In this document: positions 13,118 through 51,819 of the stretch, piece by piece | Layout: each line of letters opens with the position of its first letter | Position numbering within the stretch: position 1 is the stretch's first letter | Origin: a virus | IMG/VR virus record: IMGVR_UViG_3300012954_000007 | Strand: one strand, 5' to 3' | DNA: 64,000 nt | Position numbers and translations under genes: made by a program | The notes under the pieces: generated by a model | The model's database searches: none | What the model was told of the DNA's origin: nothing | The model's input: the letters and a program-made list of their open reading frames with translations, nothing else

Positions 13118-13933
13118 CTAGACAGTTTCTGGTGTATATTTTATTTCTCTATCTGAAGTGAAAAAATATTCTTTTTTAGCTGTTTCAATCCAAAAATTAG
13201 CCTCAACAGCGTCAATCAATTCTTCTTTGTTAAATTTGTAATTCCAAAATAAAGAATCTGGTCGCATATTAGTGTGTTTGTAACCAACCTTAGGAATTGT
13301 AAATACTTTTAAATCATTGTAAGTAGCTCTTAATAAGAATTCGTATACAAAAGTTAAACGAATAGTACTTTTAAAACCACCTACTTCCTCAAATTTTTCT
13401 TTATTGATTACCATTCCACTTGTTTGAAAATTAGGATACCTTAATAGACATTGGTTATCTAAGTAACCCATTTTGTCACTAAAATTCATAGCCCAAACTG
13501 CTTCATTTGTAAAATTAATAAATTCTCCTTCAGCAGTTACGTCGACAACAAGAGGTAAGAAAATATCTACGTCTTCGTAGTGAGATAAATATTTTTCAAC
13601 ATTTTTAAACCATATTGTAGCATATTCATCGTCATACTCTAAAATAGAAAACCATTTAGTTTTAGTATTTTCAACACCGAAATTAACTTGTCCCATAAAC
13701 GAAGTGTCTCCAGTGTTTTCCATAATTTCTACTTCTAACCCACTAAAGTCAAAAGTTTCTAAATAATTTTTAACTTTAACGTCACTACTTCTAACTACAA
13801 GTAAACTAGGTTTATTTTCTACCGTTTGAGTAGAAATACTTTTGATTGCATTTTTAAATAAATCATCTGTTTTTTCATCCATTAAATGGATTGGTAATAT
13901 AATTGTTAAATCTTTCATTTTAATTTTCTTCAT
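13118..13933 (-). CDS. Glycosyltransferase, GT-A fold (GT2-like)
   Basis: Motifs LTIILPIH, SILEYDDEY, FEEVGGF. Confidence 0.85.
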   Translation of the reverse strand: MKKIKMKDLTIILPIHLMDEKTDDLFKNAIKSISTQTVENKPSLLVVRSSDVKVKNYLETFDFSGLEVEIMENTGDTSFMGQVNFGVENTKTKWFSILEYDDEYATIWFKNVEKYLSHYEDVDIFLPLVVDVTAEGEFINFTNEAVWAMNFSDKMGYLDNQCLLRYPNFQTSGMVINKEKFEEVGGFKSTIRLTFVYEFLLRATYNDLKVFTIPKVGYKHTNMRPDSLFWNYKFNKEELIDAVEANFWIETAKKEYFFTSDREIKYTPETV

Positions 13934-15014
13934 TTACTGTAAGTTTATTAATAGCGTTTTCTAGTTCTTCTTCTTTTTCTTTCATCAACTCTTCCATAAA
14001 AGTTTGAACTCCTTCTTTTTGTTTCTCTAGTGTGTAAGGTTTTACAGTCTCTTCCATTTTTTCAAAAAGTGTGGTAGGTACAGAGTCCTCCAACCAAGTT
14101 TTCATATAAGCGTTAATTACGTCCACTATTTGGTTAAATTCATAACTCCAGAAACCATTTTCTTCAGCTAACCACTCAGGTTTAAGGTTAGGTATCTTAC
14201 CTATGACAGGAACTCCACTTTTCATACACTCCAAAGGGAATGTACCAAAACCTGAAATGTCATCAACCCACACACCTACAGCTACATCCTGTAAAGTCTC
14301 TGCAAAATTTTCCAAACTCATACCTCTCATATCTCTAAATGTCACCCATTTAAATTGTGGATATCTAGCATAAAATGTTTTAACTATTTTCATCGTATCT
14401 CTAGGTTCTCTAGTATGAATAGCTACCAAAGGTGTACCTGGTTTATCACTATTTTTAAATAGAGGTGATATGGTTGGTGGTACTATCGATACATTTAAAT
14501 CTGGAAAAACTGATAATATATATTCTTTAGAAATTTCAGAAGTTGTAATCACATGAGTATACCCATAATTAATCCATTGTACCCCTGGTTGTAACATTTC
14601 AAAAATGTAGTCATAGGATTGACATAAGACGACCTTTGTACATGCCATCTCTTTAGTTTGTTCCATAACATGACCAAACAGTTCAGGGACTATAAGAACG
14701 TCTGATGGACCTACTGATAACCCACCTGTACTAACACAGGAATGAGGTAGAGAAGAGTACTCTTCACCCAACCACTCACTAATTGGCATCCATTCTCCAT
14801 TTTGAGAATCGGTAATTTTATAGTCTTCATTTTCATGTAAAATAGACGCATTATAACCATTATCGATTAGAATTTTTACTAAACTATAATTGTAAGCTAC
14901 AGAAGCTTTAGGGTTACCTTTAGTGTCTTGAGTTAAAACAAAAATTTTAGATTGCTTTGATTTGACTAAATCTAAAGCTTCCTCAATTTTTTTAATGTGA
15001 TTGTTGTCTGTCAT
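13920..15014 (-). CDS. Glycosyltransferase, GT-B fold (GT4-like)
   Basis: Motifs DVLIVPE and SGFGTFPLECMKSGVPVIG. Confidence 0.8.
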   Translation of the reverse strand: MTDNNHIKKIEEALDLVKSKQSKIFVLTQDTKGNPKASVAYNYSLVKILIDNGYNASILHENEDYKITDSQNGEWMPISEWLGEEYSSLPHSCVSTGGLSVGPSDVLIVPELFGHVMEQTKEMACTKVVLCQSYDYIFEMLQPGVQWINYGYTHVITTSEISKEYILSVFPDLNVSIVPPTISPLFKNSDKPGTPLVAIHTREPRDTMKIVKTFYARYPQFKWVTFRDMRGMSLENFAETLQDVAVGVWVDDISGFGTFPLECMKSGVPVIGKIPNLKPEWLAEENGFWSYEFNQIVDVINAYMKTWLEDSVPTTLFEKMEETVKPYTLEKQKEGVQTFMEELMKEKEEELENAINKLTVNEEN

Positions 15015-15024
15015 TTTAGTTATT

Positions 15025-15913: not shown

Positions 15914-15950
15914 TAATTAAAATTACTTTAAATTATTAAGTAGTAAACTA

Positions 15951-16616
15951 TTAATAACCAGTTAATAGAGTTAATACTTCGTCTATAGCTTCGTGTCTAT
16001 GATTATCCTCTAATACGACTTTGAAAACAAATTCAGAGTCTTTAATTTTAGGTATTTCATGTATTGCTGAATAATTTTTATCTTTTAGGTCTATTTGTTG
16101 ATTATCACCACAAAATATCATGGTAGAACCTTTACCTAATCTACCTAATGCCATATTAAGTTGTGATTTAGTTAAATTTTGAAATTCATCCACTATCACT
16201 ACACAATTCTCAAAGGTCCTACCTCTAAAGTGAGCTAAAGACACTAGTTCAATACTTTCATCTTCCTCCATTTTTTCTAATATGGTTGGTTTGTTATAGA
16301 CCTTTCTCATATTACTTCTAATCGGTACTAACCAAGGTTCCATTTTCTCTTTTTCTGAACCAGGTAAAAAACCGTTATCTTCTGTAGAAACTGTAGGTCG
16401 TGTTATAATAATTTTATTAACCATCCTTTTAAAAAACATGTCTAAAGCAGTTTGACACGCTAATAAAGTTTTACCTGAACCAGCTTTACCTACAATAAAA
16501 TTAAACGGTTTATTAAGTATTGAGGCTTTTGATTTTTTTTGTTCTTCAGATAAAGTTATTGAAAATCGTACTGGTCCTTTAGGTGGTACCTTATCTATAT
16601 TTTGTTTTGGAGCCAT
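15951..16616 (-). CDS. phoH: PhoH-like ATPase
   Basis: Motifs GKAGSGKT, ITRP, GFLPG, RGRTF, IVDEFQN, GDNQQID. Confidence 0.95.
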   Translation of the reverse strand: MAPKQNIDKVPPKGPVRFSITLSEEQKKSKASILNKPFNFIVGKAGSGKTLLACQTALDMFFKRMVNKIIITRPTVSTEDNGFLPGSEKEKMEPWLVPIRSNMRKVYNKPTILEKMEEDESIELVSLAHFRGRTFENCVVIVDEFQNLTKSQLNMALGRLGKGSTMIFCGDNQQIDLKDKNYSAIHEIPKIKDSEFVFKVVLEDNHRHEAIDEVLTLLTGY

Positions 16617-17614
16617 TAATATTGTTTTTGTAAAACCATTTTATTAATTCTAACCTGTTCGTCCCAATACTGAATCATATCATCCATTAGAGTTTCAAAA
16701 GTGTACTTAGGCTCCCAACCTAAAACTGTCCTAGCTTTAGTTGAATCACCTTTCAGATATTTTAATTCTTCTGGTCTTAAAAATTTAGGGTTTTGTGTTA
16801 CGTAGTCTTTATAGTCCATGTCTAGTGCGTTAAATACATAATCACACATATCTCTCACTGAGTGAGTTACCATTGTAGAAATTACAAAATCATCTGGTGT
16901 TTCATGATTAATTATTTTATGCATAGCTCTTACATAATCATAAGAGTGACCCCAGTCACGATAAGCATCCATATTACCCAACTCTAATTTATCTTTTAAA
17001 CCGTGTTTAATTTCTAAAGCTGTTTTAACTACTTTACTAGTTACAAAATTAGACCCTCTTCTAGGTGATTCATGGTTAAATAAAATACCATTAGTTGCGT
17101 GAAGATTATAAGCTCTACGATAATTTCTAACAATAGAATAACCAAATAATTTAGAACAACCATAAGGACTAACTGGAGTCATAGGTGTTGACTCTCTTTG
17201 AAATCCGTCTTCATCTATAGAATTACCGAACATTTCCGAAGAACTTGCTTGGTAAAATTTAGCTTGTGGACACGCTCGTCTATAAGCTTCTAAAATATTT
17301 AACACTCCTAGAGCGTTAGTTTGCACAGTAAATTGAGGAATTTCAAAACTAATCCTGACATGTGACTGAGCCGCTATATTGTATATTTCATCAGGTTGTA
17401 TTTTATCCAATAACCTTTCTAACCCTGATTGGTCTAACATATCTCCGTAGTAAGTGTGTATTTCACCCTCCAATTCAGAGATTCGTGTATCTTGATTTTC
17501 AGGTGTTGAGTTTCTCCTAATAATTCCGTGAACCTCATATCCTAAATCTACTAAATATTCAGCTAGGTAACTACCATCTTGGCCTCCAATACCTGTAATA
17601 AATGCTTTTTTCAT
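16616..17614 (-). CDS. gmd: GDP-mannose 4,6-dehydratase
   Basis: Motifs ITGIGGQDGSYLAE, AAQSHV, FYQASSSEMFG, NGILFNHESPRRG, RDWGH. Confidence 0.97.
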   Translation of the reverse strand: MKKAFITGIGGQDGSYLAEYLVDLGYEVHGIIRRNSTPENQDTRISELEGEIHTYYGDMLDQSGLERLLDKIQPDEIYNIAAQSHVRISFEIPQFTVQTNALGVLNILEAYRRACPQAKFYQASSSEMFGNSIDEDGFQRESTPMTPVSPYGCSKLFGYSIVRNYRRAYNLHATNGILFNHESPRRGSNFVTSKVVKTALEIKHGLKDKLELGNMDAYRDWGHSYDYVRAMHKIINHETPDDFVISTMVTHSVRDMCDYVFNALDMDYKDYVTQNPKFLRPEELKYLKGDSTKARTVLGWEPKYTFETLMDDMIQYWDEQVRINKMVLQKQY

Positions 17615-17616
17615 GT

Positions 17617-17883
17617 TTATTTTATTTTTTCTCTATTATTATAATCACCAAAATTCCTACTGTAAACAGTTTTCCCTCCGTCTGGTGATTCATAAATTTT
17701 AACGGTAGGGTCAGTCTCTATATTTTTTTTACTGTTATTAACAAAAATAACAGTTGGGTTTTTTTGTTTTATATGTTTTCCATAAATTTCTTCAAAACTA
17801 AAAGATTCAGATAATAAAGTAAAAGGGACCATGGGTTCTCCATGACCATAACTTACCATATCCCATAATTCATATTTTATCAT
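17617..17883 (-). CDS. Small hypothetical phage protein
   Basis: 88 aa with IYESPDGGKTVYSR motif; ATGA overlap with the upstream fcl gene. Confidence 0.6.
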   Translation of the reverse strand: MIKYELWDMVSYGHGEPMVPFTLLSESFSFEEIYGKHIKQKNPTVIFVNNSKKNIETDPTVKIYESPDGGKTVYSRNFGDYNNREKIK

Positions 17884-18830
17884 AATTTTATAATTTTAGA
17901 ATAGTGTTTTATTGTATTTTTAATACCTTCTTCTGGTTTAGTGAATAAAAAATTAGGAAAATATTTTTTAAATAATTTATTACACATTATTTTTTTAGGT
18001 GCTCCTTCTGTTTTACTTAAATCATTATTGATTAGAAAATCAGTACCTAAAATATTTTGTACCATGTCTACGGATTCCTTAATAGAAAAACCAAATTCTT
18101 GGCCTAAATTTAAAGGATTGGGTATTTCTACTTCTCCCGAAATAATTTTTTCATCCTCTATAATAGATTTAATAATTTTAGCAACATCTTCCATATAAAT
18201 CCATTCCCTAATAGGGTTCCCAGTACCCCATATTGTAAATTCTTTTTTATTTTCTTTTATAGTTTTAAGTAATCTAATTATAATACCATTTAATGCGTGT
18301 GTTTTATTTTCATCGGAAGAATCAAAAGGACCATAAGCGTTAGGTACTAATAAATTTATGGTTTTAATATTATACTGTTTTTTATAACATTCCGACAATA
18401 TAAATCCTGTTTTTTTAGAACTACCGTATGATTCTACTGATGGGTGTATTGCTCCCTTCCACCAGTCCTCTTCTTTTAAAACATCTAAAGTATCTCCAGG
18501 GTATGAACAATTAGCTAGTGGGTTAATTAACAAAATATCTTTATTATGTTCCTTTATCGCTTTAAAAAGATTAATATACATTTCAACATTCTCACTACAA
18601 ACTGTTGCAGCGTACTTACTAACATAACCCACCCCACCTACATGTGCGGAAGCATTAATTATAATATTAGGATTAATTTTTTTAAGTGTATTATTAATAC
18701 TGGATAATTTAGTTAAATCACAACCAGTTTTTCTACTTTCATTGAAAACGATATACTTTTCACCTGTAAAAACTTTGTTTAAATTTTTACCCATAAATCC
18801 ATTCCCACCTAGTATTAGTATTTTTTTCAT
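17880..18830 (-). CDS. fcl: GDP-L-fucose synthase (epimerase/reductase)
   Basis: Motifs GGNGFMG, SAHVGG, CSYP, YGSSK, NAYGP, IWGTGNPIREWIY; adjacent to gmd. Confidence 0.85.
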   Translation of the reverse strand: MKKILILGGNGFMGKNLNKVFTGEKYIVFNESRKTGCDLTKLSSINNTLKKINPNIIINASAHVGGVGYVSKYAATVCSENVEMYINLFKAIKEHNKDILLINPLANCSYPGDTLDVLKEEDWWKGAIHPSVESYGSSKKTGFILSECYKKQYNIKTINLLVPNAYGPFDSSDENKTHALNGIIIRLLKTIKENKKEFTIWGTGNPIREWIYMEDVAKIIKSIIEDEKIISGEVEIPNPLNLGQEFGFSIKESVDMVQNILGTDFLINNDLSKTEGAPKKIMCNKLFKKYFPNFLFTKPEEGIKNTIKHYSKIIKL

Positions 18831-18861
18831 CTTCTCTTTTTTAAAATATAAAAAAATTTAA

Positions 18862-19413
18862 TCAAAATTCAATGCCTAATCGTTTAAAGAATTCATCTTT
18901 ACCAGTACGTTCTTTAATAAACTTAGCTGGTATACCAGCATATAATGAATAAGGTAAATATTTAATTTTTTTAATTAAAGAATGTGCACCAGAAGCAAAT
19001 CCATCAGGTATGTTAGTGCCAGGTAAAATACAAGTGTGTGCACCTATAACACAATATTTACCTATATTAACATCCTCATAAGTCCCACCAAACCGTAATT
19101 TTTCTGGAACAGAAGGTAAATCTAAAGAAAGAGTATCATATTCCGATGAGGCACAGTGGATTGAGGAGTGGTGAGATATAGTAGTATAATCACCGACATA
19201 TAGATGAGCTAAACTTCCAGAAATAGAAACATTAGAAGCTATATGACAATTTTTACCTACCGTTATCCCACAAGAAATATATGTAAAATCATCTATAATT
19301 GTACCGTCACCTATTGAAACCTCTTCTGGTTTACGGATACGAACAGTTTTACCTATTATAACATTTTCCCCACAATACTTTAGTTTACTTCTATCAAAAA
19401 AGATATTTTCCAT
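18862..19413 (-). CDS. Hexapeptide-repeat sugar O/N-acyltransferase
   Basis: Left-handed beta-helix repeats (IGDGTIID, VGKNCHIA, IGKYCVIG) and YAGIPAKFIK. Confidence 0.9.
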   Translation of the reverse strand: MENIFFDRSKLKYCGENVIIGKTVRIRKPEEVSIGDGTIIDDFTYISCGITVGKNCHIASNVSISGSLAHLYVGDYTTISHHSSIHCASSEYDTLSLDLPSVPEKLRFGGTYEDVNIGKYCVIGAHTCILPGTNIPDGFASGAHSLIKKIKYLPYSLYAGIPAKFIKERTGKDEFFKRLGIEF

Positions 19414-19415
19414 TT

Positions 19416-20222
19416 TTATTTAATATAGTTTTGGTACATGTAGTCTTCGGCTATAGGTAAATTAAGAGACCTTTCAAAATTATCTTCCATAGCTTCTTTT
19501 TTACTAAAATACAAATCTGGTGTTAAAGAATCAATATTAAAATTTTCATCTAAAATGATAATCCCATCAGTGTTAAAAAATTTATCTATACTAGGCATTC
19601 CCCAAAAAACTGGAATTGTACCAGTAACAAAACAATCTGTTATTTTTTCCGTAAAAATATTATCGTAGTTATCATTTTCCATAGCTATAGAAAATCTATA
19701 ATCTTTTAAAGCATCCTCTTTATGGGTTAAATTACCGAACCCCCAACCAAAATGGTCTAAATGGTTCCTATACTTATTTAATATTTGATGACGGTAATGA
19801 TGTCCAGGGCACATTCTTTTGTGTGAGGCAATCATTGAAAGATTTTTACTTTTATTGTAAATTTTGGGTTTGGTGACCCAGGGAACAGAGTTAGTTATAA
19901 TCTCCTTAAATTTAGGAGATAGGGATAACAACCTTTCATCGTGAGTGAAAATTAACTCAAAATCCTCTTCTAATCTAGAGATATTATTTTTTACCCATTC
20001 TATAACTTCTGGTATAATAGCGGAAGATTCTAAAATCCACGCGTAATTTTTTTTATTTGGGTTGGGTTTACACTCTATTAAAGCGTTATCTATGTAAACA
20101 CTTATAGGAGCACTTTCACCTTTTTTTACCCACTCTACATACTTAGGTATAGAATAACCCGAAGAAGAATCAGCATGATGAAATCCCCCACCTATTAAAT
20201 TAATTTGTTGTTTTATATTCAT
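19416..20222 (-). CDS. Fucosyltransferase-like glycosyltransferase (GT10-like)
   Basis: YRFSIAMEN...FTEKITDCFVTGTIPVFWG matches the GT10 signature. Confidence 0.8.
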   Translation of the reverse strand: MNIKQQINLIGGGFHHADSSSGYSIPKYVEWVKKGESAPISVYIDNALIECKPNPNKKNYAWILESSAIIPEVIEWVKNNISRLEEDFELIFTHDERLLSLSPKFKEIITNSVPWVTKPKIYNKSKNLSMIASHKRMCPGHHYRHQILNKYRNHLDHFGWGFGNLTHKEDALKDYRFSIAMENDNYDNIFTEKITDCFVTGTIPVFWGMPSIDKFFNTDGIIILDENFNIDSLTPDLYFSKKEAMEDNFERSLNLPIAEDYMYQNYIK

Positions 20223-20908
20223 TCGAAAGTATATTTAAAAGTATCAATATCCTTTTCATAAAGTTTAGATACTATTTTTTTGGTTTTATCATTATAAAAC
20301 TGTGTGTATGGTACATGGTAAGAGGTATTACGTTTAGGGGGTACAGGTAAATTTAATCCTGTTGACAGATTAACATTTTTAATTATATCTTCAAAATTTT
20401 CCATTTTACCAATAAAATCTACCATAAGTTTGTCTTTATCATCATATACCCAATTATATTGATTTAAAGTTAAATAGTTAATGTTAGATTCGTTTAGGTT
20501 GTTAGGCATTGTAGAAAATGTTGGGGTCATGTAAACATCACCCCTACCTTGACTAATAAAATTAACTTTACTAACAAAATCATCAAAAGAGGTACATTTT
20601 AATTTATCAAACCAGACATGTTCAGGAGGAGTTCTTAAACCTCCTGTTGTGTGGGTGGGTAAAACCTCCGAACCATTTTTACAAAAACTGTAAACAGAAA
20701 CTAACCTATCCCAAGGATTACGAGTATGTGCAAATTTAAAATAATCGTCAAAATTATCATTTAAAATATTTTTAATATTACGTGCAAAAGTATGTCCATA
20801 AGGTTGGGGTGGGAAGTCTAATTCCTCTAGTAATGATTGTATAGTCCACCCCCCAGTTTTAGGTATGTGTATATGTAATAATTTTTTATTTTTTATTTGG
20901 GTTTCCAT
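20219..20908 (-). CDS. Carbohydrate sulfotransferase (Sulfotransfer_2-like)
   Basis: 5'-PSB motif HIPKTGG and 3'-PB motif RNPWDRLVSVY. Confidence 0.88.
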   Translation of the reverse strand: METQIKNKKLLHIHIPKTGGWTIQSLLEELDFPPQPYGHTFARNIKNILNDNFDDYFKFAHTRNPWDRLVSVYSFCKNGSEVLPTHTTGGLRTPPEHVWFDKLKCTSFDDFVSKVNFISQGRGDVYMTPTFSTMPNNLNESNINYLTLNQYNWVYDDKDKLMVDFIGKMENFEDIIKNVNLSTGLNLPVPPKRNTSYHVPYTQFYNDKTKKIVSKLYEKDIDTFKYTFE

Positions 20909-20911
20909 TTT

Positions 20912-21511
20912 TTATTGAAATATTTTATTTTTAGTTAAGTCAGGCCAATCTTCTAATTTCCATTTTTTAGGGGGAGTTTCAATAGCTGACTTTAGTTTAT
21001 TCAATCCCAACTGAGCTGTTTCTGGAGTCATGTAGTAATGGTAACCAGTTACTTCTATATTTTGTTCTCTCCAGGGTATGTTTGGTATTCTACCATCGTA
21101 AACCATTTTTCTTAAATGAGTAGCAGCTTCTAGGTTGTCAGTTAAAATCATCCCACCCCTACCTAAACTTAAATGTTTTTGGTATTGAAAACTTAAAGAC
21201 ATAAAAGTATTCGGTATGTAACTATCTTTTTTCCACAGAATTGCAGAATCTATAATGTTATCTGTTAAATAATAGTAATCCTCCCACTTTTCGTCCTTCC
21301 AGTTTAATTCTATATTAAGTTTGTCAGCTAAAAAAGGAATAGAAAGGTAAGTTCTTTTAGGAACACTAATTTTTCTACTTTTATGGTATCTTAAACAAAG
21401 TTCTATTCCGTGTGTACAACTATCAACCGCTATCCCATAAGGAGCACCAAAAAACTCAGCTACTTCCTTTTCAAATTTACTTACCGTACTAAAATCTATT
21501 TTTTTAATCAT
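20912..21511 (-). CDS. Short DegT/DnrJ/EryC1/StrS-family PLP-dependent protein
   Basis: Motifs FEKEVAEFFG, AVDSCTHG, SFQYQKHL...GRGGMIL; only 199 aa. Confidence 0.8.
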   Translation of the reverse strand: MIKKIDFSTVSKFEKEVAEFFGAPYGIAVDSCTHGIELCLRYHKSRKISVPKRTYLSIPFLADKLNIELNWKDEKWEDYYYLTDNIIDSAILWKKDSYIPNTFMSLSFQYQKHLSLGRGGMILTDNLEAATHLRKMVYDGRIPNIPWREQNIEVTGYHYYMTPETAQLGLNKLKSAIETPPKKWKLEDWPDLTKNKIFQ

Positions 21512-22053
21512 TTTTTTGCTTTTACATTTAAACTTATTAGGGTTCCCTTATCTTTATCCCCCTTGGGGTCTAGGTATGCTTGTGAGTGGTCGTCATTTTG
21601 TCTATGTACTTCATAATGTCTCCAATCGTATCTTTCAATATTATTATATGCTAATTCATATAAAAGATTATATAGTGATTCAAAATCATAAGTTGTTTTA
21701 TGATATATGGTTTCATCTCCCATAGGCATTTTACCATAAAGAGGACCTGTAATATCTTTTAATTTTACCCTTCCGTTGTGGTATAGTGTGTTCATCATTT
21801 CAAAATCTGGAACCGCAATTCTTAACTCCCCACCTGGTTTTAATACCCGACGCCATTCACGAAGTACTTCCTTTACTTCAACAATATCAAAATATTCTAA
21901 AACATGACTAGCATAAATTAAATCTACACTATCATCTTTATAGGGAAGATTTAATATGTCTTTAGAGTCTAGATGTGGGTAATCCCCACCATCTACGTGG
22001 TCCCAGTCCGAACCAAAATTTCTCCAACCACAACCCATATTAATTTTAATCAT
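21508..22053 (-). CDS. Class I SAM-dependent methyltransferase
   Basis: Motifs NMGCG, DLIYASHVLE, RVLKPGG. Confidence 0.9.
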   Translation of the reverse strand: MIKINMGCGWRNFGSDWDHVDGGDYPHLDSKDILNLPYKDDSVDLIYASHVLEYFDIVEVKEVLREWRRVLKPGGELRIAVPDFEMMNTLYHNGRVKLKDITGPLYGKMPMGDETIYHKTTYDFESLYNLLYELAYNNIERYDWRHYEVHRQNDDHSQAYLDPKGDKDKGTLISLNVKAKK

Positions 22054-22829
22054 AATTTTATTTTTTTTATTGTGTTATTAGTTGCTATTGAAAGTTTGTT
22101 TTCATCTTTATAATTTACATCACTACAAAAGCGTGTGTATAAAACTTTTTGAGGTAATGGGGTTTTTTGATAAATTAGTGGAAACTCACTTTCAAAAAAA
22201 TACCTATTATATTGTTGTCCGTCTACCCCACACATGTGTGTTATATTTTCAGTTAAAAAGTTTTGTCCATGATTATTTAAAAAGTACTCAATAACTTCCC
22301 CAAAGTGTACCCAAAAAGTGTATAATGAGGTTAATTGATTAACTTTTCTAGTGTGGGTAAGAAGTGGTGATAATAAATTTTCACCATAACCTGGAGGGTT
22401 CAGAGTAACGTAAGGAGAATATAAGGAAGCGGTTTCTTTTAACATTTTGGATTCTATTTTTTCTCTATTGTCCCAAAATAAATCAAATACTTCTTTTCTA
22501 AAATCGTCATCTCCACTAGTAGCTCCTTTAGTGTGACCAAACCAACAAAATTTATATTTTTTATTATTCTTTTTAAGTAATCGTAATGCTGTTTGAAAAG
22601 CTGAACAATCGCTATCTACTAATAAATTTTCGGGTGTTATGTCATATTTTAAATTTAATTTTTTACTATATTCATCTAAAAGATTAACCCATTCATTACA
22701 CGAATTGTTTACCCCAACATAAATGTCATAATCGTAAAATAACTTATAAAATTTATCTAAAAATTCTTTACCTATGTATAATTTGTCAGGACTAGGTATG
22801 TGAGAAGCAAAAATTATACAATTTTTCAC
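22050..22829 (-). CDS. Putative glycosyltransferase-like protein
   Basis: WFGHTKG motif and cluster context. Confidence 0.45.
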   Translation of the reverse strand: MKNCIIFASHIPSPDKLYIGKEFLDKFYKLFYDYDIYVGVNNSCNEWVNLLDEYSKKLNLKYDITPENLLVDSDCSAFQTALRLLKKNNKKYKFCWFGHTKGATSGDDDFRKEVFDLFWDNREKIESKMLKETASLYSPYVTLNPPGYGENLLSPLLTHTRKVNQLTSLYTFWVHFGEVIEYFLNNHGQNFLTENITHMCGVDGQQYNRYFFESEFPLIYQKTPLPQKVLYTRFCSDVNYKDENKLSIATNNTIKKIKL

Positions 22830-22839
22830 GGTAAATTTT

Positions 22840-23430
22840 TTACAAATAAATTATTCCTATACCAAAACAGTTCTTTTCTTCCATAATTTCGTCCGTGTTA
22901 GGGTATTGTTCTTTTATTTCTTCCCACAAAATATCAACCCTACACCCTAGTTGGATGTGTAGTGGGGTTTTTTTAATATCATGAAGTATAATTACCCCTC
23001 CCTCTTTCATAAGTTCTTTGTATACCTTAAAATCTTGTTTCGCTCCCTCATAACTATGGTCCCCATCAATGTAGAGTACATCCAAATTTAATTCTTTTAC
23101 GCTATTAAAAGTAGTTTCATCATGACTATTAGCACCAATGTACGTATAGTTTTTACAAATTTCTTTAATTATATTTAAACTTCTTTCCGAATTTTCTATA
23201 CCACCACCAAACCTACATTTTATATTGTCATCAATAGTGACTAACGATTTTGCAAAATTTGCAAGGCAAAAGGTTGAACCCCCATCATAAGCACCTATTT
23301 CTAAAATATCTAAGTGTCCTTTTTCTTTTTGTAGTTTTTCTAAAATTTTTAAGATATACATCCATTCTTTTTTATTTTGTTGTATAAAAAAAGTTTTTTC
23401 ACTAATATCCCATATTTGTTCTAAATTCAT
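22840..23430 (-). CDS. SAM-dependent methyltransferase (Methyltransf_24-like)
   Basis: Motifs LEIGAYDGGS, LYIDGDHSYEG, GGVIILHD. Confidence 0.9.
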   Translation of the reverse strand: MNLEQIWDISEKTFFIQQNKKEWMYILKILEKLQKEKGHLDILEIGAYDGGSTFCLANFAKSLVTIDDNIKCRFGGGIENSERSLNIIKEICKNYTYIGANSHDETTFNSVKELNLDVLYIDGDHSYEGAKQDFKVYKELMKEGGVIILHDIKKTPLHIQLGCRVDILWEEIKEQYPNTDEIMEEKNCFGIGIIYL

Positions 23431-23440
23431 ATATTTTTTT

Positions 23441-23851
23441 TTAAATAAAAGTTTTATCTAATTCCTGTCCTTCATATGGACCAGTTTTATATTCATACAC
23501 TATAGTATTTTCTTCTAAAATTTCATATGTGTGCCCACCATAAAGGGTAAAACTAGCGTCTCCAGGTAATAAAATAGGTTCCGCAATTACACTATTATCT
23601 AAATCATATAAAATACATTTTACTTTACCTTTAATAACAACCCAACTTTCTTGGGCTATTTGATTTTTATAAGTCCTTTCTTTTTCAATATGTTTGTGCG
23701 GTGGAAACGTCTTTTGATTTTCTAATTTCATAGCCGCACATTGAATAAAATGTTCAGAGGGAACAATATTAACTCTACCGTCAATATCTGTTAATCTATT
23801 AACAATATGTAAAAGTCTTTCGGGTTCTATTTTAGAATAAATTTTTTCCAT
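23441..23851 (-). CDS. Cupin-fold sugar-modifying protein (WbuC-like)
   Basis: PHKH...QESWVVIKG...GGHTYE cupin metal motif. Confidence 0.7.
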   Translation of the reverse strand: MEKIYSKIEPERLLHIVNRLTDIDGRVNIVPSEHFIQCAAMKLENQKTFPPHKHIEKERTYKNQIAQESWVVIKGKVKCILYDLDNSVIAEPILLPGDASFTLYGGHTYEILEENTIVYEYKTGPYEGQELDKTFI

Positions 23852-24513
23852 TATAAGGTTGTATTTTTAAGTATAACATTACCAAAATTCCCTAAAAAAT
23901 TAAACACTTTAATCTTTTCAAAATTAGGTAACATTTTTAAAGTTTCTTCTAAGTTAGAGGAACCTTCGTAAAGTTCCACCTCTTCAAATTCAGTGATTAG
24001 TATTTTGGTTTTCTCGTTTAAGGTTTTTACAGCTCCTTCAATAAACTCTTTTGTAGCTCCATTTACATCCACCCACATAATATCAATTATGTCTACATTA
24101 TTTTCACTATACCAGGTGTCTAATTTTTTAGATTTTACTGTGGTAGGTTGTTTAAAATAAACGTCTGTAAAAGTGGTAAGATGTTCTTTAGGTTTTTTCA
24201 TAGAAGATGAAGCGGACCATGATTTTTGGTCGTCATAATGTCTTCTGGTCTCGCTCTCACTTTCATACCAAGAAATTGTACCATCTACATTAGATATAGC
24301 TGTTTCAATTAAATGTATATTATCACTTTTAACGTTCTTATTAAATAACTCTATACTTCTCTGGTCTGGTTCAAAAGAATATATCTGAGCCTTTGGAAAT
24401 ACCTTTAGAAAATCCTTACTATCACTGCCGTCGTAACACCCCACATCAAATATTGTAGGTGTTTCTGAAACAACATACTCTTTTAAAGTCTCTTTATTAA
24501 ATTCTCCTCCCAT
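23851..24513 (-). CDS. FkbM-family methyltransferase
   Basis: Motifs FDVGCYDG, IYSFEP, IDIMWVDVNG. Confidence 0.88.
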   Translation of the reverse strand: MGGEFNKETLKEYVVSETPTIFDVGCYDGSDSKDFLKVFPKAQIYSFEPDQRSIELFNKNVKSDNIHLIETAISNVDGTISWYESESETRRHYDDQKSWSASSSMKKPKEHLTTFTDVYFKQPTTVKSKKLDTWYSENNVDIIDIMWVDVNGATKEFIEGAVKTLNEKTKILITEFEEVELYEGSSNLEETLKMLPNFEKIKVFNFLGNFGNVILKNTTL

Positions 24514-25226
24514 TATACTATCTTTTTTTCAACTAATTCTTTTATGGTTTCATGGTCTAACCCATTTAAGTTTAAGTGATTTATATTATTCACTCTCACA
24601 CCCTCTATTTTATGTACACACACACCTTCATTTTCTATTGTACCTAATACTAGAACGTCTGTATTTCTAACATTTTCAGAATTAGTTACTTCAAATTCCC
24701 AAGGAGAAAAATTAGGTTGTAAATATTTAATAAATTGTTTGGTTGGCCAAATAGAAGCCTGAGTATTAACTATATAATCGGACTTTGGGTCAAGTTTATA
24801 AATGTTAATGTCATTTATTTTTTTATACGGTATTACCCCTTTATATATGCCAGAGTGATTGACTATCATATCATTAGTTAAATCTACTCGGTCTACCCCA
24901 TCATCTTTAACTACTTCCATTAAAGCTTTAAGAATGTTAAAATTAATCGGACGAATTATAAATTGGTCTTCCATAATGTATATAAAATATTCTTCATCTA
25001 TAGACTCAAAATATTTTTTTAAGTCATTAGACCAATCGTCAGGACCTGTTTGTGTGCCCATAGAAACAAAACTAAAGTTTACGGGTAAATCAAATTCTGG
25101 GGTTTTATACCCCAATACAACCACTTCCCACTCATTACCCCAAAACTTATTAAAAGTATGACAAAACACTTTTAATGCGTGGTGGTAATTGTCAGAAGTA
25201 GTACAATATATTTTTAATTTATTCAT
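24513..25226 (-). CDS. Putative glycosyltransferase (GT-A-like)
   Basis: Motifs FIYIMEDQF, QASIW, SPWEFE; cluster context. Confidence 0.55.
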   Translation of the reverse strand: MNKLKIYCTTSDNYHHALKVFCHTFNKFWGNEWEVVVLGYKTPEFDLPVNFSFVSMGTQTGPDDWSNDLKKYFESIDEEYFIYIMEDQFIIRPINFNILKALMEVVKDDGVDRVDLTNDMIVNHSGIYKGVIPYKKINDINIYKLDPKSDYIVNTQASIWPTKQFIKYLQPNFSPWEFEVTNSENVRNTDVLVLGTIENEGVCVHKIEGVRVNNINHLNLNGLDHETIKELVEKKIV

Positions 25227-25227
25227 T

Positions 25228-25842
25228 TTATTTTTTTAAAAAGTCGTAATTCATATACCCACCTTGAATGTCAGAAAATCCGTCTTTCTGCCACGCTAAA
25301 TGTGGTCTAAAAACATAACTAGGAAATACTGCTTGTAGTTGAGCGTAGGTAACATCAACTTGAGTTTTTTCTTTTTTAAGTAATTCTAAAATATGGTCAA
25401 AAAGATTACTTTTTATACAAATTGCGTGGATAGCGTAAGAGTGTCTTATTTTAGCTACCTTATCATTAACTGGGGTAATACCACCTACATGATTTCCACC
25501 CATGTAAATAAAAGACCAATCCTCAGGAACAGAAGAATAAAAAGAAAAGAATTTTTCTTTAAATTCTGGGTCTAATTCCACATCATCTTCAAAAATAACT
25601 ATTTGTTTATAACCATTATCTTTAGCGTCTTTTACAACATTGTAGTTACTCCTAATTACACCTACCTCACCAGGTAATAATTCACCCACACCCTCAGGGG
25701 CAACTTCTTTACCATTTATTGCAGAAAACCTATCAACCACAATACCGTGTTTTGTGAAGTGTGTTTTACATTCCTCCCACCTATCCTTTCTATGGTCTAA
25801 GTTTATACAATAGGCTTTATCAAAAAGTTGGTTTAATTCCAT
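25228..25842 (-). CDS. Glycosyltransferase family 25-like
   Basis: Motifs YCINLDHRKDRW, RFSAING, GEVG..RS, IFEDD. Confidence 0.88.
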   Translation of the reverse strand: MELNQLFDKAYCINLDHRKDRWEECKTHFTKHGIVVDRFSAINGKEVAPEGVGELLPGEVGVIRSNYNVVKDAKDNGYKQIVIFEDDVELDPEFKEKFFSFYSSVPEDWSFIYMGGNHVGGITPVNDKVAKIRHSYAIHAICIKSNLFDHILELLKKEKTQVDVTYAQLQAVFPSYVFRPHLAWQKDGFSDIQGGYMNYDFLKK

Positions 25843-29112: not shown

Positions 29113-29119
29113 AATACTT

Positions 29120-34689: not shown

Positions 34690-34741
34690 AGTTTCTTTTT
34701 ATCTATAAATATTAATGCATTCATTAAATATTTATTTATGT

Positions 34742-37547: not shown

Positions 37548-39380
37548 ATGTCTTGTAAATGTAAAAATATTATAGAAAACTTCCAAGGGGGCACTATTCC
37601 ATTAACCACAACCTTTAATGGGGACATACATGTGTGTGGGGATATTTTAGGTTGTTCACCAGTAACCATAGGTAATGATAGTGGGTGTACATCTGGTAAT
37701 ACAACTTTAGTTGTTAGTGGAAGTTCGATATTTAGTTGTGATGTCGATATAGTAGGTAATATATACAGTGGTGGTACAAATTTATTAGATATTTTTTCCA
37801 CTACCACCTCATCAGGTTCAACAGGAGGAGGGGGAACCTTTACAGGAAATACTTCAGCTACCTGTATTAATGAATTATGGGTGTCTAATATTTCTGGATG
37901 TAGTCCAGTTACTATCGGAACAGAAGCAGAATTTTCACAAGACGTATCGGTCTCACAATACATCAGACATACGGGTGATGCTGACACACATATTCAATTT
38001 TTAGATAATAAACTTCAGTTACATGCTGGTAACATACCTTTTATTCAACTTGATAAAGATGCAGCAACACCTTACCCTCTTACAATTAATCATGGTGGTA
38101 ATAGAGTTAACTTGAGGGTTCTAGATAAAGATAGTAACCTACTTTTAAAAACCGATTCTGAAGCATCTAAGGTAAATTTATACCATGCTGGTAGTATGAA
38201 ATTAGAAACACAAATCGGAGGTATTGATGTAATAGGTGAACTTAATGTGACTAGTGGTTTAACTGTAACGGGAGACACTATAGTAAAGGGGGGGAAAATA
38301 TTACTGGGTGATGGTGACGTTAGTAATAACTATGCTGGATTTGGTAATAATGATGACCTAAAAATATTTCACAACGGAGCCCACTCAATAATAAGAGAAA
38401 CAGGAACAGGAAACTTATACCTACAAAGTGATAATAATGTTATACTTTCTAAGGATAATAGTACAGAACCTATGGTGAAGGGTATTGCCGATGGAGCAGT
38501 TGAACTTTATTATGACAATATTAAAAAGTTTGAAACCACAACGGATGGAGCAAAAGTTTCAGGTGAACTTAATGTGACTAGTGGTTTAACTGTAACAAGT
38601 TCAGGTACAAATACTTCAGATACGGTATTTTTAGTACAAGATAGTGTCGGTAATCATATCATAGAAGGTTTAGATACTGGACAAGTTCATGTTGGAGACT
38701 TAGTTAATAGTGCCCTACCAACAAATCCAACACTTTTGATTGGTGCGGGTAAAACACCAAACGATAGAGGTTCGTTAGCCTTTACTTCTTCAGGTATAGG
38801 TATCGGGGGAGATAATGATACAATTGGAGATTATCTACACTTCCTTTTACCAGGAAGTGATAACAGTAGATGGAAATTTGATACTTCTTCCGCATTTGGT
38901 TTTACCTTAGTAAGTAGACAAAATAATACTTTTGGTTCGGGTTCGGGAACTAGAAGTAGTTTTTACACTAGTAGAACATACGGAGTAGATTTTTTACTGG
39001 GTTATGCTAGTAGTCTAGGTGTTACAGATACCGTCGGATATAGATTTAACACTAAAGATAGTACTAGTGCAGGTGCAAATGATATAGAAAGATTTGTTAT
39101 TGAAAACGGTGCAGCTGAAACTAAATCTTATTTTGATAATATTAGTGTGTTGGGTATCGGGACATATAATCCAGACACCAATGTTAAAGTACACATTAGT
39201 GGAGATACTTTAATGAGTGGTAGTTTTACAGCAAGTACCATGACACTTAGTAATGTTCCTGCTTTTGCAGATGATAGTGCTGCGGGGACTGGTGGATTAT
39301 CGGTTGGGGACGTTTATCAAACCTCTGGAACGGGAGCTGCTCCTTTAAATGTGGCGGGAATATTAATGATAAAACAATAA
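37548..39380 (+). CDS. Tail fibre-like modular protein
   Basis: Gly/Thr-rich beta repeats; fibre-type module DDLKIFHNG..SIIRETGTGNL..GAVELYYDNIKKFETT; TATTTAT at 37528-37534. Confidence 0.72.
   Translation: MSCKCKNIIENFQGGTIPLTTTFNGDIHVCGDILGCSPVTIGNDSGCTSGNTTLVVSGSSIFSCDVDIVGNIYSGGTNLLDIFSTTTSSGSTGGGGTFTGNTSATCINELWVSNISGCSPVTIGTEAEFSQDVSVSQYIRHTGDADTHIQFLDNKLQLHAGNIPFIQLDKDAATPYPLTINHGGNRVNLRVLDKDSNLLLKTDSEASKVNLYHAGSMKLETQIGGIDVIGELNVTSGLTVTGDTIVKGGKILLGDGDVSNNYAGFGNNDDLKIFHNGAHSIIRETGTGNLYLQSDNNVILSKDNSTEPMVKGIADGAVELYYDNIKKFETTTDGAKVSGELNVTSGLTVTSSGTNTSDTVFLVQDSVGNHIIEGLDTGQVHVGDLVNSALPTNPTLLIGAGKTPNDRGSLAFTSSGIGIGGDNDTIGDYLHFLLPGSDNSRWKFDTSSAFGFTLVSRQNNTFGSGSGTRSSFYTSRTYGVDFLLGYASSLGVTDTVGYRFNTKDSTSAGANDIERFVIENGAAETKSYFDNISVLGIGTYNPDTNVKVHISGDTLMSGSFTASTMTLSNVPAFADDSAAGTGGLSVGDVYQTSGTGAAPLNVAGILMIKQ
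38234..38596 (+). repeat. Exact 36-nt direct repeat pair, 327 bp apart
   Basis: aggtgaacttaatgtgactagtggtttaactgtaac at 38234-38269 and 38561-38596. Confidence 0.95.
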
Positions 39381-48330: not shown

Positions 48331-51300
48331 ATGGCAGCAGACGGAAAAGTTTTTGTATCCCCAGGGGTATACACGTCAGAAAAAGATTTAAGTTTCGTAG
48401 CATCAAGTGTGGGAGTAACCACATTAGGGTTAGCTGGTGAAACTCTTCAGGGTCCAGCTTTTGAACCTATTTTTATAAGTTCATACGGTGAGTTCCAAAC
48501 ATATTTTGGTAGTTTAAATCCAGAAAAGTTTACTGAAACTCAAATCCCGAAATACGAATTATCATATATTGCAAAAGCATATCTACAACAATCCAACCAA
48601 TTATTCGTAACTAGAGTATTAGGTTATTCAGGGTATGACGCAGGACCTTCTTGGTCTATAACCACTGTCGGGAATCCTGATTGTGAAACAATAAGAACAC
48701 AATGTGCGGACACGGTAGGGACATTATATAGTGCTTCGACATGTAATACTGGTACTCCTTTTGAGTCTACCACTGGTTCTACAGCACAAGTTTATACAGG
48801 AGCTCTTTCTCTGTATTTTACTGGAGCTACTGATGTGTTTAGTGATTCTAGTACATTAACAAAACCTGCTTCTCAATTACCTTGGCCTATTTCAGAAAAA
48901 ATAAATAGCACTTTGACTAAAACAGACGGTAGTAATACTACAATTTCTAATGAATTAGATAGTCTATTGTCAACTTACTATAATTCACTTCCACCTCACG
49001 ATACTGGTTTAGGATGTGCGACTGGAACAACACCTTGTTTTGCTGTTATGACTGGTGGAACAAGTCAAGAAATTGCTTTTGGTTGTAATTATGATGGTGA
49101 TGAAGTTTCTGGTAATACTTTATATAATGGAACTTTCTTAGAAAACGCTGGAAACCCTACAACTTCAGGTGTTACTTACCAAACTAAATTTAGTGGAGTA
49201 ACAGAAACACAAGTTTTAGGTTCTTCATGTAACCCTAAACCATCAGTATTCTGTAATGACATTAATGACCCATGGTTATATGGATTCTTCGATATTATTC
49301 CTGGAACCGACCAATATACAGGATTCTCTTTAAGTATTGGTGTTAACACTAACGATGTGTTAGATGTTAGTACTTCTGCTGAAACAACCTTATACTCAGG
49401 AGCTTCTGCTTTAAGATATTCTTACACATTATATACTGGAGAAACTTTCTGTAACTATAACGATTTAGTTGTAGCGACATTCCGTTCTAGAGGTGTAAGT
49501 ACACAAACATCTGGTGGACCAATTTACCAAGTTACTGGAGGAACAGACGTTACTATGGTTTGTACGGGTAATACCTTCGCAAATATAAATACAGACCCAT
49601 TTGCTACTTTTGGTATTGACGTAACCGATGTTGACGGTGATACATTTAGATTTGAAACATCACTAGCTTCGTCATCTAAAGACTTTGTAAAAAGAGTGTT
49701 CGGTGTAGCACCATTCGATAAAGACATGGAACAAGTTCCAATTTTTGTAGAGGAAGCTTACCCTAACATGTTAACATACGCATATAAGAAAGGTTATATT
49801 AAAGGGTTAAACTGTAGTTTATTAGATTTACCTTCATATAGAGACTCGAATAACACAGGGACTATAGGTTTCTATCAAGAACAATGGCAAACACCAGTTA
49901 CTCCTTATGTTGTTTCTGAATTAAGAGGTACTAAAGTATACAAACTATTTAGATTCATTTCTATATGTGATGGTAACGCTGCAAATACACAAGTTAAAAT
50001 ATCTATAGTTAACATTTCTTTCGAAAGAAACGAGTTTGATATTTTAGTTAGAAGTTTCTACGACACAGACGCTTCACCAGTAGTATTAGAAAGATATACA
50101 AGATGTAGTATGAATCCTAATTTAAACTCTTTCGTTGGAGTTAAGGTTGGTACAGCTAACGGTGAATATGAATTGAAGAGTAGATACATAATGGTAGACT
50201 TAGACCCAGAACAAGAAACTGACACTAACCGTCACGATGCTGTTCCTTGTGGATTTGAGGGTTATGTGACTAGAAATTACTTAGGAGAACAGAGTCCTAC
50301 TTTATATTATAAAACAAAATACAATAAACCTGGAGATATAATCTGGAACCCTCCTTTCGCGATAAGTTCTACTGTTGATAATTCTACAATTAGTGCGGGA
50401 GACAAAATCAGGAGAGTCTACTTAGGTATTTCAGATACTGCAGCATCAGCTTACGATGATGATTTCTTCCAGTATAAAGGAAAACAAGCACCAACAGACA
50501 AGTGTACTGATTTAGACGGTACAGATTGGAACTGTTTAACACAAGGATTCCATATGGATAGTGGAGCAACTTGTATCAACACATTAGGTGAATTATGTAT
50601 TACTACTCTTTGTAAAAATTGTGGTAGTGGAACTACTACTGAGGACCAATACTCTGTAGGTGTGGCACCGTTTAGAAGTGAACCTACAAGTGCAACTGAC
50701 CCTTACTACACTTTACAGTCTAGAAAATTCACGTTAGTACCTTATGGTGGTTTCGATGGTTGGGACATTTATAGAAAATCACGAAGTAATGGTGATAGTT
50801 ACGTTAGAGGTAAATCAGGTTTCTTAAACGGAGCTTGTACTTCAACTACATTCCCTAACGCGAGTGGTGATGGTTCATTTAAACTATTATCTAGTACTCC
50901 TTGGGGTGAGTCTGGTTTCTTCGCAACGACTGACTATTACGCTTACTACTTCGGTATTAGAACATTTAGAAACCCAGAAGCGGTTAATGTGAACGTATTA
51001 GCGACACCAGGTATTGACTACGTAAACAATAGTAACCTTGTAGAGGAGACGATTGATATGGTTGAAACTGAAAGAGCTGATTCATTGTATGTTACTACAA
51101 CACCTGACTACAACTTATTTGTACCAGGAGCAACAATAGCATCAAACATAATCCAACCTACTGAAGCGGTAGATAACTTAGACTTAACAGCAATTGATTC
51201 TAACTACACCGCTACTTACTACCCATGGGTACAGTACAACGACCAAGAAAACAATACAAGAGTATGGTTACCACCTACTTATGATGTAATGAGAAACATC

Positions 51301-51819
51301 GCTTTAACAGATAACATCTCATTCCCTTGGTTCGCGTCCGCTGGTTACACTAGAGGTATTGTAAACGCGGTTAAAGCTAGAAAGAAACTTACTCTTGATG
51401 AAAGAGATACGTTATACGCTGGTAGAATTAACCCAATCGCAACTTACTCAGATGTTGGTACTATTATCTGGGGTAACAAAACACTACAAAGTAGACAATC
51501 TGCATTAGACAGAATTAACGTTAGAAGATTGTTATTACAGGCTAGAAAATTAATTTCGGCAGTCGCAGTTAAATTGTTATTCGAACAAAATGACGAACAA
51601 GTAAGAAACGAATTCTTAGACTTAGTTAACCCAATCTTAGACTCTATTAGAAGAGAGAGAGGTTTAACAGACTTTAGAGTTGTTCTTTCTGACGACCCAC
51701 AATTGATTGACCAAAATACATTAGAAGGTAAGATTTACATAAAACCAACTAGGTCTCTAGAATTTATTGATATCGAATTCTTAATTACACCTACTGGAGC
51801 ATCATTTGAAAATGTATAA
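48331..51819 (+). CDS. Contractile tail sheath protein (gp18-like) with large insertions
   Basis: Motifs SPGVYTSE, TYYPWV, PWFASAGYTRG, RINPI, WGNKT, RINVRRL, LFEQND, KPTRSLEFI. Confidence 0.96.
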   Translation: MAADGKVFVSPGVYTSEKDLSFVASSVGVTTLGLAGETLQGPAFEPIFISSYGEFQTYFGSLNPEKFTETQIPKYELSYIAKAYLQQSNQLFVTRVLGYSGYDAGPSWSITTVGNPDCETIRTQCADTVGTLYSASTCNTGTPFESTTGSTAQVYTGALSLYFTGATDVFSDSSTLTKPASQLPWPISEKINSTLTKTDGSNTTISNELDSLLSTYYNSLPPHDTGLGCATGTTPCFAVMTGGTSQEIAFGCNYDGDEVSGNTLYNGTFLENAGNPTTSGVTYQTKFSGVTETQVLGSSCNPKPSVFCNDINDPWLYGFFDIIPGTDQYTGFSLSIGVNTNDVLDVSTSAETTLYSGASALRYSYTLYTGETFCNYNDLVVATFRSRGVSTQTSGGPIYQVTGGTDVTMVCTGNTFANINTDPFATFGIDVTDVDGDTFRFETSLASSSKDFVKRVFGVAPFDKDMEQVPIFVEEAYPNMLTYAYKKGYIKGLNCSLLDLPSYRDSNNTGTIGFYQEQWQTPVTPYVVSELRGTKVYKLFRFISICDGNAANTQVKISIVNISFERNEFDILVRSFYDTDASPVVLERYTRCSMNPNLNSFVGVKVGTANGEYELKSRYIMVDLDPEQETDTNRHDAVPCGFEGYVTRNYLGEQSPTLYYKTKYNKPGDIIWNPPFAISSTVDNSTISAGDKIRRVYLGISDTAASAYDDDFFQYKGKQAPTDKCTDLDGTDWNCLTQGFHMDSGATCINTLGELCITTLCKNCGSGTTTEDQYSVGVAPFRSEPTSATDPYYTLQSRKFTLVPYGGFDGWDIYRKSRSNGDSYVRGKSGFLNGACTSTTFPNASGDGSFKLLSSTPWGESGFFATTDYYAYYFGIRTFRNPEAVNVNVLATPGIDYVNNSNLVEETIDMVETERADSLYVTTTPDYNLFVPGATIASNIIQPTEAVDNLDLTAIDSNYTATYYPWVQYNDQENNTRVWLPPTYDVMRNIALTDNISFPWFASAGYTRGIVNAVKARKKLTLDERDTLYAGRINPIATYSDVGTIIWGNKTLQSRQSALDRINVRRLLLQARKLISAVAVKLLFEQNDEQVRNEFLDLVNPILDSIRRERGLTDFRVVLSDDPQLIDQNTLEGKIYIKPTRSLEFIDIEFLITPTGASFENV

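Follow-up and report, generated by a model that had tools for sequence, protein, structure and literature searches.

Mycobacteriophage virions are reportedly O-glycosylated by phage-encoded glycosyltransferases (GTs), and giant viruses such as chlorovirus PBCV-1 (on its capsid protein) and mimivirus (on its fibrils) glycosylate autonomously, with clade-specific gene sets and non-canonical sequons. Among bacteria, cytoplasmic glycosylation of adhesins is carried out by HMW1C, which uses an NX(S/T) sequon, and by TibC/AAH, which heptosylate the beta-helix repeats of AIDA-I/TibA, while the G-x-T triplets in the collagen-like GXT region of Bacillus BclA are O-glycosylated. Here we analyse a 64-kb stretch of viral DNA (IMG/VR record IMGVR_UViG_3300012954_000007, henceforth the window) that carries an island of glycan-building genes on the minus strand (positions 13118-31904) together with tail proteins crowded with the peptide motif [ST]G.[ST]. 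The reading we favour, at slightly less than even chances, is that this phage brings its own machinery for glycosylating its tail in the cytoplasm, with hydrophobic-[ST]-[G/A]-x-[T/S] as the tag.

As is reported for the mycobacteriophages, the proposal here is that soluble GTs encoded by the phage act in the cytoplasm on its own structural proteins. The mycobacteriophage glycans reportedly sit on the C-terminal ends of capsid and tail-tube subunits, whereas here capsid and tube are not motif-enriched and the candidate sites are an internal five-residue motif in the outer domain of the sheath, in a lectin-fold protein and in fibres; the island, moreover, appears to supply unusual nucleotide sugars itself and contains a cassette that can be exchanged. 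With giant viruses it shares virus-encoded nucleotide-sugar synthesis (in their case 4,6-dehydratases, an aminotransferase and acetyl-/methyltransferases) alongside soluble GTs and without a host-type export route, a combination represented in the window by Gmd, an Fcl-like short-chain dehydrogenase/reductase (SDR), RfbB, tailoring enzymes and GTs. Giant viruses are, however, eukaryotic viruses, PBCV-1 bears N-links on its capsid, and their sequons are unrelated to the motif of the window. The adhesin and BclA systems are alike in using a soluble GT at many sites on beta-rich or repetitive surface proteins before export or assembly, guided by a short or structural tag, but the enzymes of HMW1C, TibC and AAH belong to other families (GT41, BAHT) and none uses hydrophobic-[ST]-[G/A]-x-T. 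BclA differs in that the proteins of the window are not collagen-like, although (GTS)n/(GPT)n proteins occur in LR756501, a 735-kb phage genome compared below. Large T4-like cyanophages (PMC12801897) and the moraphages, a described Bacteroidota-associated lineage (by predicted hosts) with four core GT orthologous groups (PMC12619734), are likewise large aquatic myoviruses with multi-GT, sugar-tailoring islands, of unknown target; for the moraphage GTs, DNA, host serotype and the virion are named as possible targets (PMC12619734). Term searches of the two texts returned neither a virion-protein motif nor a GT linked to one. The literature searched has accounts of phage virion glycosylation but of no defined tail-protein sequon; the motif described here, if it is truly glycosylated, would be the first sequon for protein glycosylation to be defined in a bacterial virus.

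We counted [ST]G.[ST] in every protein of the window and compared the counts with those in whole-protein shuffles, in shuffles within blocks of 15-40 residues and for five permuted residue orders. The excess is concentrated in four proteins, here called by their start or end coordinates where they have no other name: the tail protein at 34715 (21 motifs, shuffle mean 2.8, z 11.7), the tail sheath (15 versus 3.6, z 6.4), the fibre at 37548 (11 versus 3.7, z 4.2) and the protein at 6629 (5 versus 1.3, z 3.2). Tube, tape-measure-region proteins and enzymes of the window showed no enrichment (the polymerase PolB has 2 motifs), and the other 57 open reading frames (ORFs) hold 19 motifs where 16 are expected. 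By-eye counts in a preliminary description of this DNA, including those for capsid and PolB, were matched exactly, and the twelve tetrapeptides that it had seen packed into the sheath lie, as listed, at residues 148-412. Its view that selection acts on the peptide and not through DNA duplication agrees with the varied codons at the motif, which rule out a DNA-level cause. The excess also stands against composition-shuffled controls: it persists under block shuffles, and permuted orders yield 0-7 instances instead of 21 in the 34715 protein and 3-7 instead of 15 in the sheath, so that neither whole nor local composition can be its cause. The full motif is enriched 3-8-fold over shuffles, while the half-motifs [^ST]G.[ST] and [ST]G.[^ST] occur at or below their expected counts, and the enrichment climbs to 5-13-fold when position -1 is hydrophobic (e.g. 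11 versus 0.9 and 8 versus 1.1; in the 6629 protein, 4 versus 0.36). The complete motif, hydrophobic-[ST]-[G/A]-x-[T/S], is therefore a cooperative signal of five residues. It has no Asp, unlike the D-[ST]-[AILVMT] sequon of general O-glycosylation in Bacteroidota, from which the preliminary description had rightly separated it: the host-type sequon is close to expectation in motif-rich proteins of the window (3 versus 3.7, 6 versus 5.7, 1 versus 1.8), apart from the 37548 fibre (8 versus 3.9, p 0.03), and this lack of general enrichment rules it out as the explanation.

The motif-rich proteins are not versions of one another. Neither blastp nor profile-profile comparison detected mutual similarity or internal repeats among those of the window (hhalign probability between the sheath and 34715 families, 0.6%), which excludes a shared shuffled domain or internal repeats as the source of the motif. 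The sheath is of the T4 gp18 type (phrog_23, E 3e-55; weak Pfam sheath domains; Foldseek to T4 gp18 chains, E 5e-7), and because of this homology its large insertion can be taken to face outward; 14 of its 15 motifs fall in this outer part (residues 110-870, 3.4 expected) and only 1 in the inner part (0.5 expected). The AlphaFold2 (AF2) model of the 34715 protein (predicted local distance difference test, pLDDT, 72) gave no significant match in Foldseek; VIA-align superposed it on 9vyh_q (Z 15.2, root-mean-square deviation 3.9 over 228 residues), on the tailspike of the cyanopodophage Pan3 (Z ~15) and on many carbohydrate-binding module (CBM) or lectin domains (Z 12-15). The model indicates a concanavalin A (ConA)-like lectin fold with insertions and, given this fold and the similarity to tailspikes and CBMs, the protein is probably a receptor-binding tail protein. 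Its database homologues begin nine codons downstream (926 aa), so that the true start is probably 34742, the one used in the preliminary description. Residues ~598-677 form a Cys-rich stretch of low model confidence (e.g. 'CCSGCT...CTTCGPASGCT') that resembles, by eye, the Thr/Cys-rich beta-helix repeats of antifreeze proteins; homologues retain 3-5% Cys, which is unusual in a protein assembled in the cytoplasm.

The same signal is found throughout the families of these proteins. In 80 sheath homologues the motif is about twice as frequent as its permuted patterns, 120 homologues of the 34715 protein have on average 13.3 motifs versus 3.2 for permuted orders, and the homologue of the 37548 fibre in the related contig G001 has 31 where 7.9 are expected. 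Motif columns are conserved across 81 sheath homologues. At conserved sites S and T interchange freely and G often gives way to A; the Ser/Thr of motifs are better conserved than other Ser/Thr (0.67 versus 0.49, p 0.007; sheath, p 0.05), and the motif Gly is no better conserved than other Gly. As far as alignments can tell, interchangeable and conserved hydroxyls beside a replaceable glycine are not what would be expected of a simple glycine turn.

The preliminary description proposed to test whether motif density varies together with the GT genes across related phages, and we therefore obtained motif statistics for whole records and searched them with all proteins of the window by tblastn (for P-SSP3, GT content was taken from the annotation). 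Four contigs of the same family (G001 to G004) have the excess in many large proteins (e.g. 43 versus 10 in one of 855 aa); the core GTs described below are present in the first three, and G004 is a fragment without the island region. Microcystis phage Mel-JY01 (190 kb, complete) has capsid, sheath core and tube in common with the window, shares none of its GTs, and shows no excess in its large proteins. LR756508 (484 kb), in which capsid, sheath and tube are also shared, carries cassette-type genes (Gmd, Fcl-like, GT10, sulfotransferase, methyltransferase and GT25) and none of the four core GTs, and again shows no excess (145 versus 119-173). Neither does the cultured jumbo phage PTm1 of Tenacibaculum (224 kb; Flavobacteriia host), with no shared GTs (66 versus 44-83), nor the marine podovirus P-SSP3, with no annotated GT, even in its homologue of the fibre-repeat region. 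The excess is thus typical neither of myovirus or fibre proteins at large (Mel-JY01, P-SSP3) nor of Bacteroidota-infecting phages (PTm1). LR756501 shares no structural gene with the window and lacks the other core GTs, yet it encodes a full-length homologue (34% identity) of the GT-B protein at 30681 and has a strong excess in non-repeat proteins (18 versus 2.0, 33 versus 6.4 and 13 versus 1.8). With an excess in two lineages that possess a 30681-type GT-B and none in five controls (four without this GT, and ESCO5, described below, with a 26% homologue only), the proposed co-variation receives support, if thin, and the distribution is suggestive of a motif that tracks this GT-B and not the sugar cassette.

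Most of what the preliminary description had read in the island was confirmed by Pfam and NCBIfam, namely Gmd, RfbB, the acyltransferase, the sulfotransferase and the three methyltransferases; the Fcl proposed as partner of Gmd corresponds to an SDR with a weak match. Its count of about nine GTs comes down to six supported proteins with seven domains, no match was found for the supposed cupin (23441-23851), and the DegT-like enzyme is present as an ORF that covers only part of the fold. In the methyltransferase ORF beside the latter (21508-22053) the match is confined to the C-terminal part of the domain, and both may be decayed or rearranged cassette genes. The gaps at 30438-30681 and 17614-17880 appear to be coding, with small ORFs of <90 aa. 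PhoH, dUTPase and exonuclease genes are interspersed among those of the island. In a simple hydropathy scan none of the ORFs in 13118-31904 had a transmembrane-like segment, and within the island there was no Pfam match to a flippase, a polymerase, an initiating phosphoglycosyl transferase or GtrA/GtrB; the membrane components that Wzx/Wzy, ABC O-antigen/capsule or GtrABC-type seroconversion loci require were not found in it.

Comparison by tblastn of all window proteins with the four related contigs reveals two parts of different tempo. The GTs at 13118, 13920, 26738 and 30681 retain their order in G003 at 44-54% identity (26738 at 44%, 13118 and 13920 at 46-48%), close to the 51% of the sheath, and over the family as a whole the conservation of the core GTs is similar to that of the sheath; PhoH, dUTPase and exonuclease also keep their order there (36-46%). 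The segment from 16.6 to 25.8 kb, in contrast, is missing from close relatives with flanking genes at 80-95%, or reaches no more than 28-60% identity there. Because the core GTs are kept in order while this segment varies, the island has the anatomy, as judged from these alignments, of a set of conserved transferases that surrounds an exchangeable cassette of sugar-tailoring genes. The 30681 GT-B is 52-92% identical across the family (52-55% in four of five further fragments), has homologues in 239 IMG/VR stretches and is encoded in nearly every family fragment that is long enough. Its assignment as a GT-B is tentative and draws on a Pfam match to Glyco_transf_4 below the cut-off (E 0.005), a PDB profile search with no more than E 0.13 to a GT1 protein, an Atlas feature score of 0.99 to virus-only GT1/RfaG clusters, and Phapecoctavirus homologues annotated as glycosyltransferases; its Glu310 is invariant. 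Overall, searching the PDB with the GT sequences told little. In a further relative, G005, the homologue (55389-56606) contains one in-frame TAA.

These elements can be combined into a mechanism. The four conserved soluble GTs would assemble a glycan, to which the strain-variable cassette would contribute the outer sugars (a GDP-6-deoxyhexose of the fucose type and a dTDP-4-keto-6-deoxyhexose) and acetyl, methyl and sulfate groups, and the product would be joined to Ser/Thr within the tag on the outer sheath domain, the ConA-like tail protein and the fibres. We single out the 30681-type GT-B as the most likely tag-recognising enzyme because the excess recurs in LR756501, which shares a homologue of it, and swapping of the cassette between close relatives is what would be expected for an exposed glycan. 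The coat might shield the particle or promote adhesion to the host or to particles. Within such a system the motif, on sequence grounds, would probably serve to mark the tail for sugar coating. The fuller proposal, that the motif is a genuine O-glycosylation sequon, recognised by a virus-specific GT-B of the 30681 family in at least two unrelated jumbo-phage lineages, coating sheaths and fibres with strain-variable, possibly sulfated, fucose-containing glycans, we advance tentatively, as a possibility that may well fail. More speculatively, the coat might mimic the algal sulfated fucans that marine Bacteroidota capture. Were the tag real, hundreds of uncultured aquatic jumbo phages (IMG/VR holds >600 homologues of the sheath and >230 of the 30681 GT) would coat their tails with sugars that differ between close strains, which would affect how the particles adsorb and stick, which hosts they infect and how host defences or grazers recognise them, and glycoengineering in the cytoplasm would gain a short portable acceptor tag with a soluble transferase. 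Recombinant proteins would suffice for a direct test, with no need of phage cultures.

A good deal weighs against a glycosylated tag. Much of it would suit an alternative that we consider a serious rival, if on the whole rather unlikely: the motif would be purely structural and unmodified, a strand-end or turn cap in beta-rich outer domains and fibre rungs, and the island would have a different target, most probably glycans of the host envelope that are built on host lipid carriers, for instance as a barrier to superinfection or to re-adsorption of progeny. Conserved columns account for most of the excess in the sheath family (5.4 motifs per protein versus 0-2.5 for permuted orders) and lineage-private motifs are at chance (1.1 versus 1.1-1.3), a pattern that fixed structural sites would produce just as fixed acceptor sites would. 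In the fibres of relatives the motif occurs within regular rung repeats ('lnvTGNT', 'TGGTy...nnSGGTfxvTGIT'), which is consistent with a structural role, and some copies lie inside the SprB repeats of one motif-rich protein of G003. AF2 models place most motifs in loops or at strand ends; that of the sheath has a pLDDT of 66, with low values in the motif-rich region. The capsid has 2 motifs versus 1.3 expected, which is not significant. Here the preliminary description, which imagined a self-made glycan on a dedicated sequon in exposed virion domains, has to be divided: the island is real, soluble and without export functions, and the motif is order-specific and concentrated in outward-facing tail proteins, above all in the outer sheath insertion, but the capsid is not enriched and a capsid coat is not indicated.

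Gene context and distribution also count on this side. A TATTTAT(A) element, which on sequence grounds is late-promoter-like, stands in gene orientation 19-47 nt ahead of 18 start codons, most of which belong to structural genes (~2 expected by chance), and in the window it precedes no gene of the island, which a terminator-like hairpin separates from upstream genes that bear the element. The core GTs are instead interleaved with dUTPase, exonuclease and PhoH. ESCO5, an E. coli phage that has only RfbB and a 26% homologue of 30681, shows no excess, the positive side of the contrast consists of two independent lineages only, and LR756508 has the cassette without the motif. Large cyanophages have similar 'LPS/cell-wall' (lipopolysaccharide) clusters of unknown target (PMC12801897). 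A purely structural motif has nevertheless to contend with its presence in non-homologous proteins without internal repeats, its lack of excess in the structural homologues of Mel-JY01, LR756508, PTm1 and P-SSP3, the replacement of G by A with hydroxyls as the better-conserved positions, and a placement relative to strands that is not uniform. The island likewise has no protein with a membrane segment or with a match to an export or priming family, and the excess recurs in an unrelated phage that shares the GT-B. We retain the glycosylated tag as the favoured, if unproven, reading.

Two further alternatives fare worse. The motif could be a functional tag whose reader is not a GT, but either another modifying enzyme such as a kinase or an assembly or binding partner, with the co-occurrence of the GT-B a coincidence; its signal-like behaviour (cooperative, with conserved hydroxyls, in non-homologous proteins) would fit this and nothing chemical ties it to sugars, but no candidate reader was identified within the window and no gene besides the 30681-type GT was found to follow the motif from one unrelated lineage to another, so that we think this improbable. 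Highly improbable, finally, is that the core GTs glycosylate hydroxymethylated bases of the phage DNA and that the motif is unrelated: they are interleaved with dUTPase, exonuclease and PhoH and apparently not of the late class, GT-A/GT-B enzymes near DNA-metabolism genes hypermodify phage DNA with diverse glycans (bioRxiv 10.1101/2023.12.21.572611) and G003 encodes a ThyA-family protein, but the DNA-glycan clusters of that preprint are anchored by genes for 5mYOX/TET or for ThyS and a C5-methyltransferase, and the island yielded no such gene. Pfam scans of the window detected no base hydroxymethylase, 5mYOX/TET or DNA C5-methyltransferase, and its methyltransferases are of small-molecule types; the preprint does not mention fucose-type, sulfate or methyl tailoring. 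G001 and G002 (190-kb fragments each) have no ThyA-family (PF00303) match and the two in G003 are ~90 kb away from the island; there was no TET/JBP (PF12851) match either, although that search matched no control genome and says little. The two G003 matches are separate (199944-200414 and 202266-202823, in ORFs of 415 and 452 aa), which points to a split gene or to an inserted intein or homing element.

The window has ~31% GC, no tRNA genes and tightly packed ORFs, and its genes were identified with PHROGs, Pfam, NCBIfam and Foldseek, PolB and a helicase among them. Its close relatives are IMG/VR contigs of 190-362 kb. The phage is an uncultured aquatic (marine) jumbo myovirus with a genome of roughly 300 kb, a size estimated from the ~60% completeness that CheckV assigns to the 190-kb relatives, and its host is likely a member of the Bacteroidota, in view of the SprB repeats in G003 and of the four core GT groups of the Bacteroidota-associated moraphages (PMC12619734). 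All genome records of the family are fragments, and the absence of a gene from them weighs little.

Features of the window, with coordinates, strand and supporting evidence
Feature	Position	Strand	Evidence or remark
Major capsid protein with insertion, not motif-enriched	4145..5977	+	phrog_138
Unassigned virion-region protein, 521 aa, 5 motifs	6629..8194	-	TATTTAT element upstream
GT2-like GT (core)	13118-13933	-	Weak Pfam GT2 match
GT-B-like GT (core)	13920-15014	-	PDB 8xsg (putative glycosyltransferase), E 7e-4
Variable cassette	16616..25842	-	Gmd, Fcl-like SDR, acyltransferase, GT10, sulfotransferase, DegT fragment, 3 methyltransferases, unknown ORFs, GT25
Gmd	16616	-	Pfam/NCBIfam
Fcl-like SDR	17880	-	Weak match
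Hexapeptide acyltransferase	18862	-	Pfam/NCBIfam
GT10 fucosyltransferase-like protein	19416	-	Pfam/NCBIfam
Carbohydrate-type sulfotransferase	20219	-	Pfam/NCBIfam
DegT-like fragment, 199 aa	20912-21511	-	Spans profile positions ~165-237 of 360 only
Three methyltransferases, small-molecule type	21508, 22840, 23851	-	Pfam/NCBIfam
GT25	25228	-	Pfam/NCBIfam
Double GT-A protein (Glyco_tranf_2_5 + GT2; core)	26738..28144	-	Pfam, E 3e-33 and 8e-16
RfbB, dTDP-glucose 4,6-dehydratase	28144..29112	-	TIGR01181, 396 bits, above equivalog cut-off
GT-B 30681 (core)	30681..31904	-	Weak Pfam Glyco_transf_4; Atlas virus-only GT1/RfaG clusters
Intrinsic terminator-like hairpin, 11-bp stem then T run	31965..31990	-	
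ConA-like lectin-fold tail protein (predicted), 21 motifs, 4.5% Cys	34715..37522	+	Motif statistics, AF2, VIA-align
Tail-fibre-like protein, 11 motifs	37548..39380	+	PHROG tail-fibre families
Tail sheath, T4 gp18 type, 1162 aa, ~760-residue outer insertion	48331..51819	+	PHROG, Pfam, Foldseek
TATTTAT(A) elements, examples	2393-2400, 37528-37535, 46397-46408, 58984-58991, 61104-61111		

Some minor observations concern the promoter-like element and the genomes compared. At two divergent gene pairs of the window a palindrome-like form of the element, TATTTATAAATA or TATAAATA, serves both directions. In Mel-JY01, a phage without a general excess, one 180-aa ORF (9444-9986) contains 11 [ST]G.[ST] motifs where 1.9 are expected. 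LR756501 also carries Gmd, GT10 and GT25, and it encodes giant collagen-like proteins with (GTS)n and (GPT)n repeats (399879-410342, 102894-111344 and 391944-395495), among them one of 3487 aa in which nearly every residue belongs to a G-T/S-S/T triplet and another, of 1183 aa, that contains GPT/GPQ/GPV triplets.

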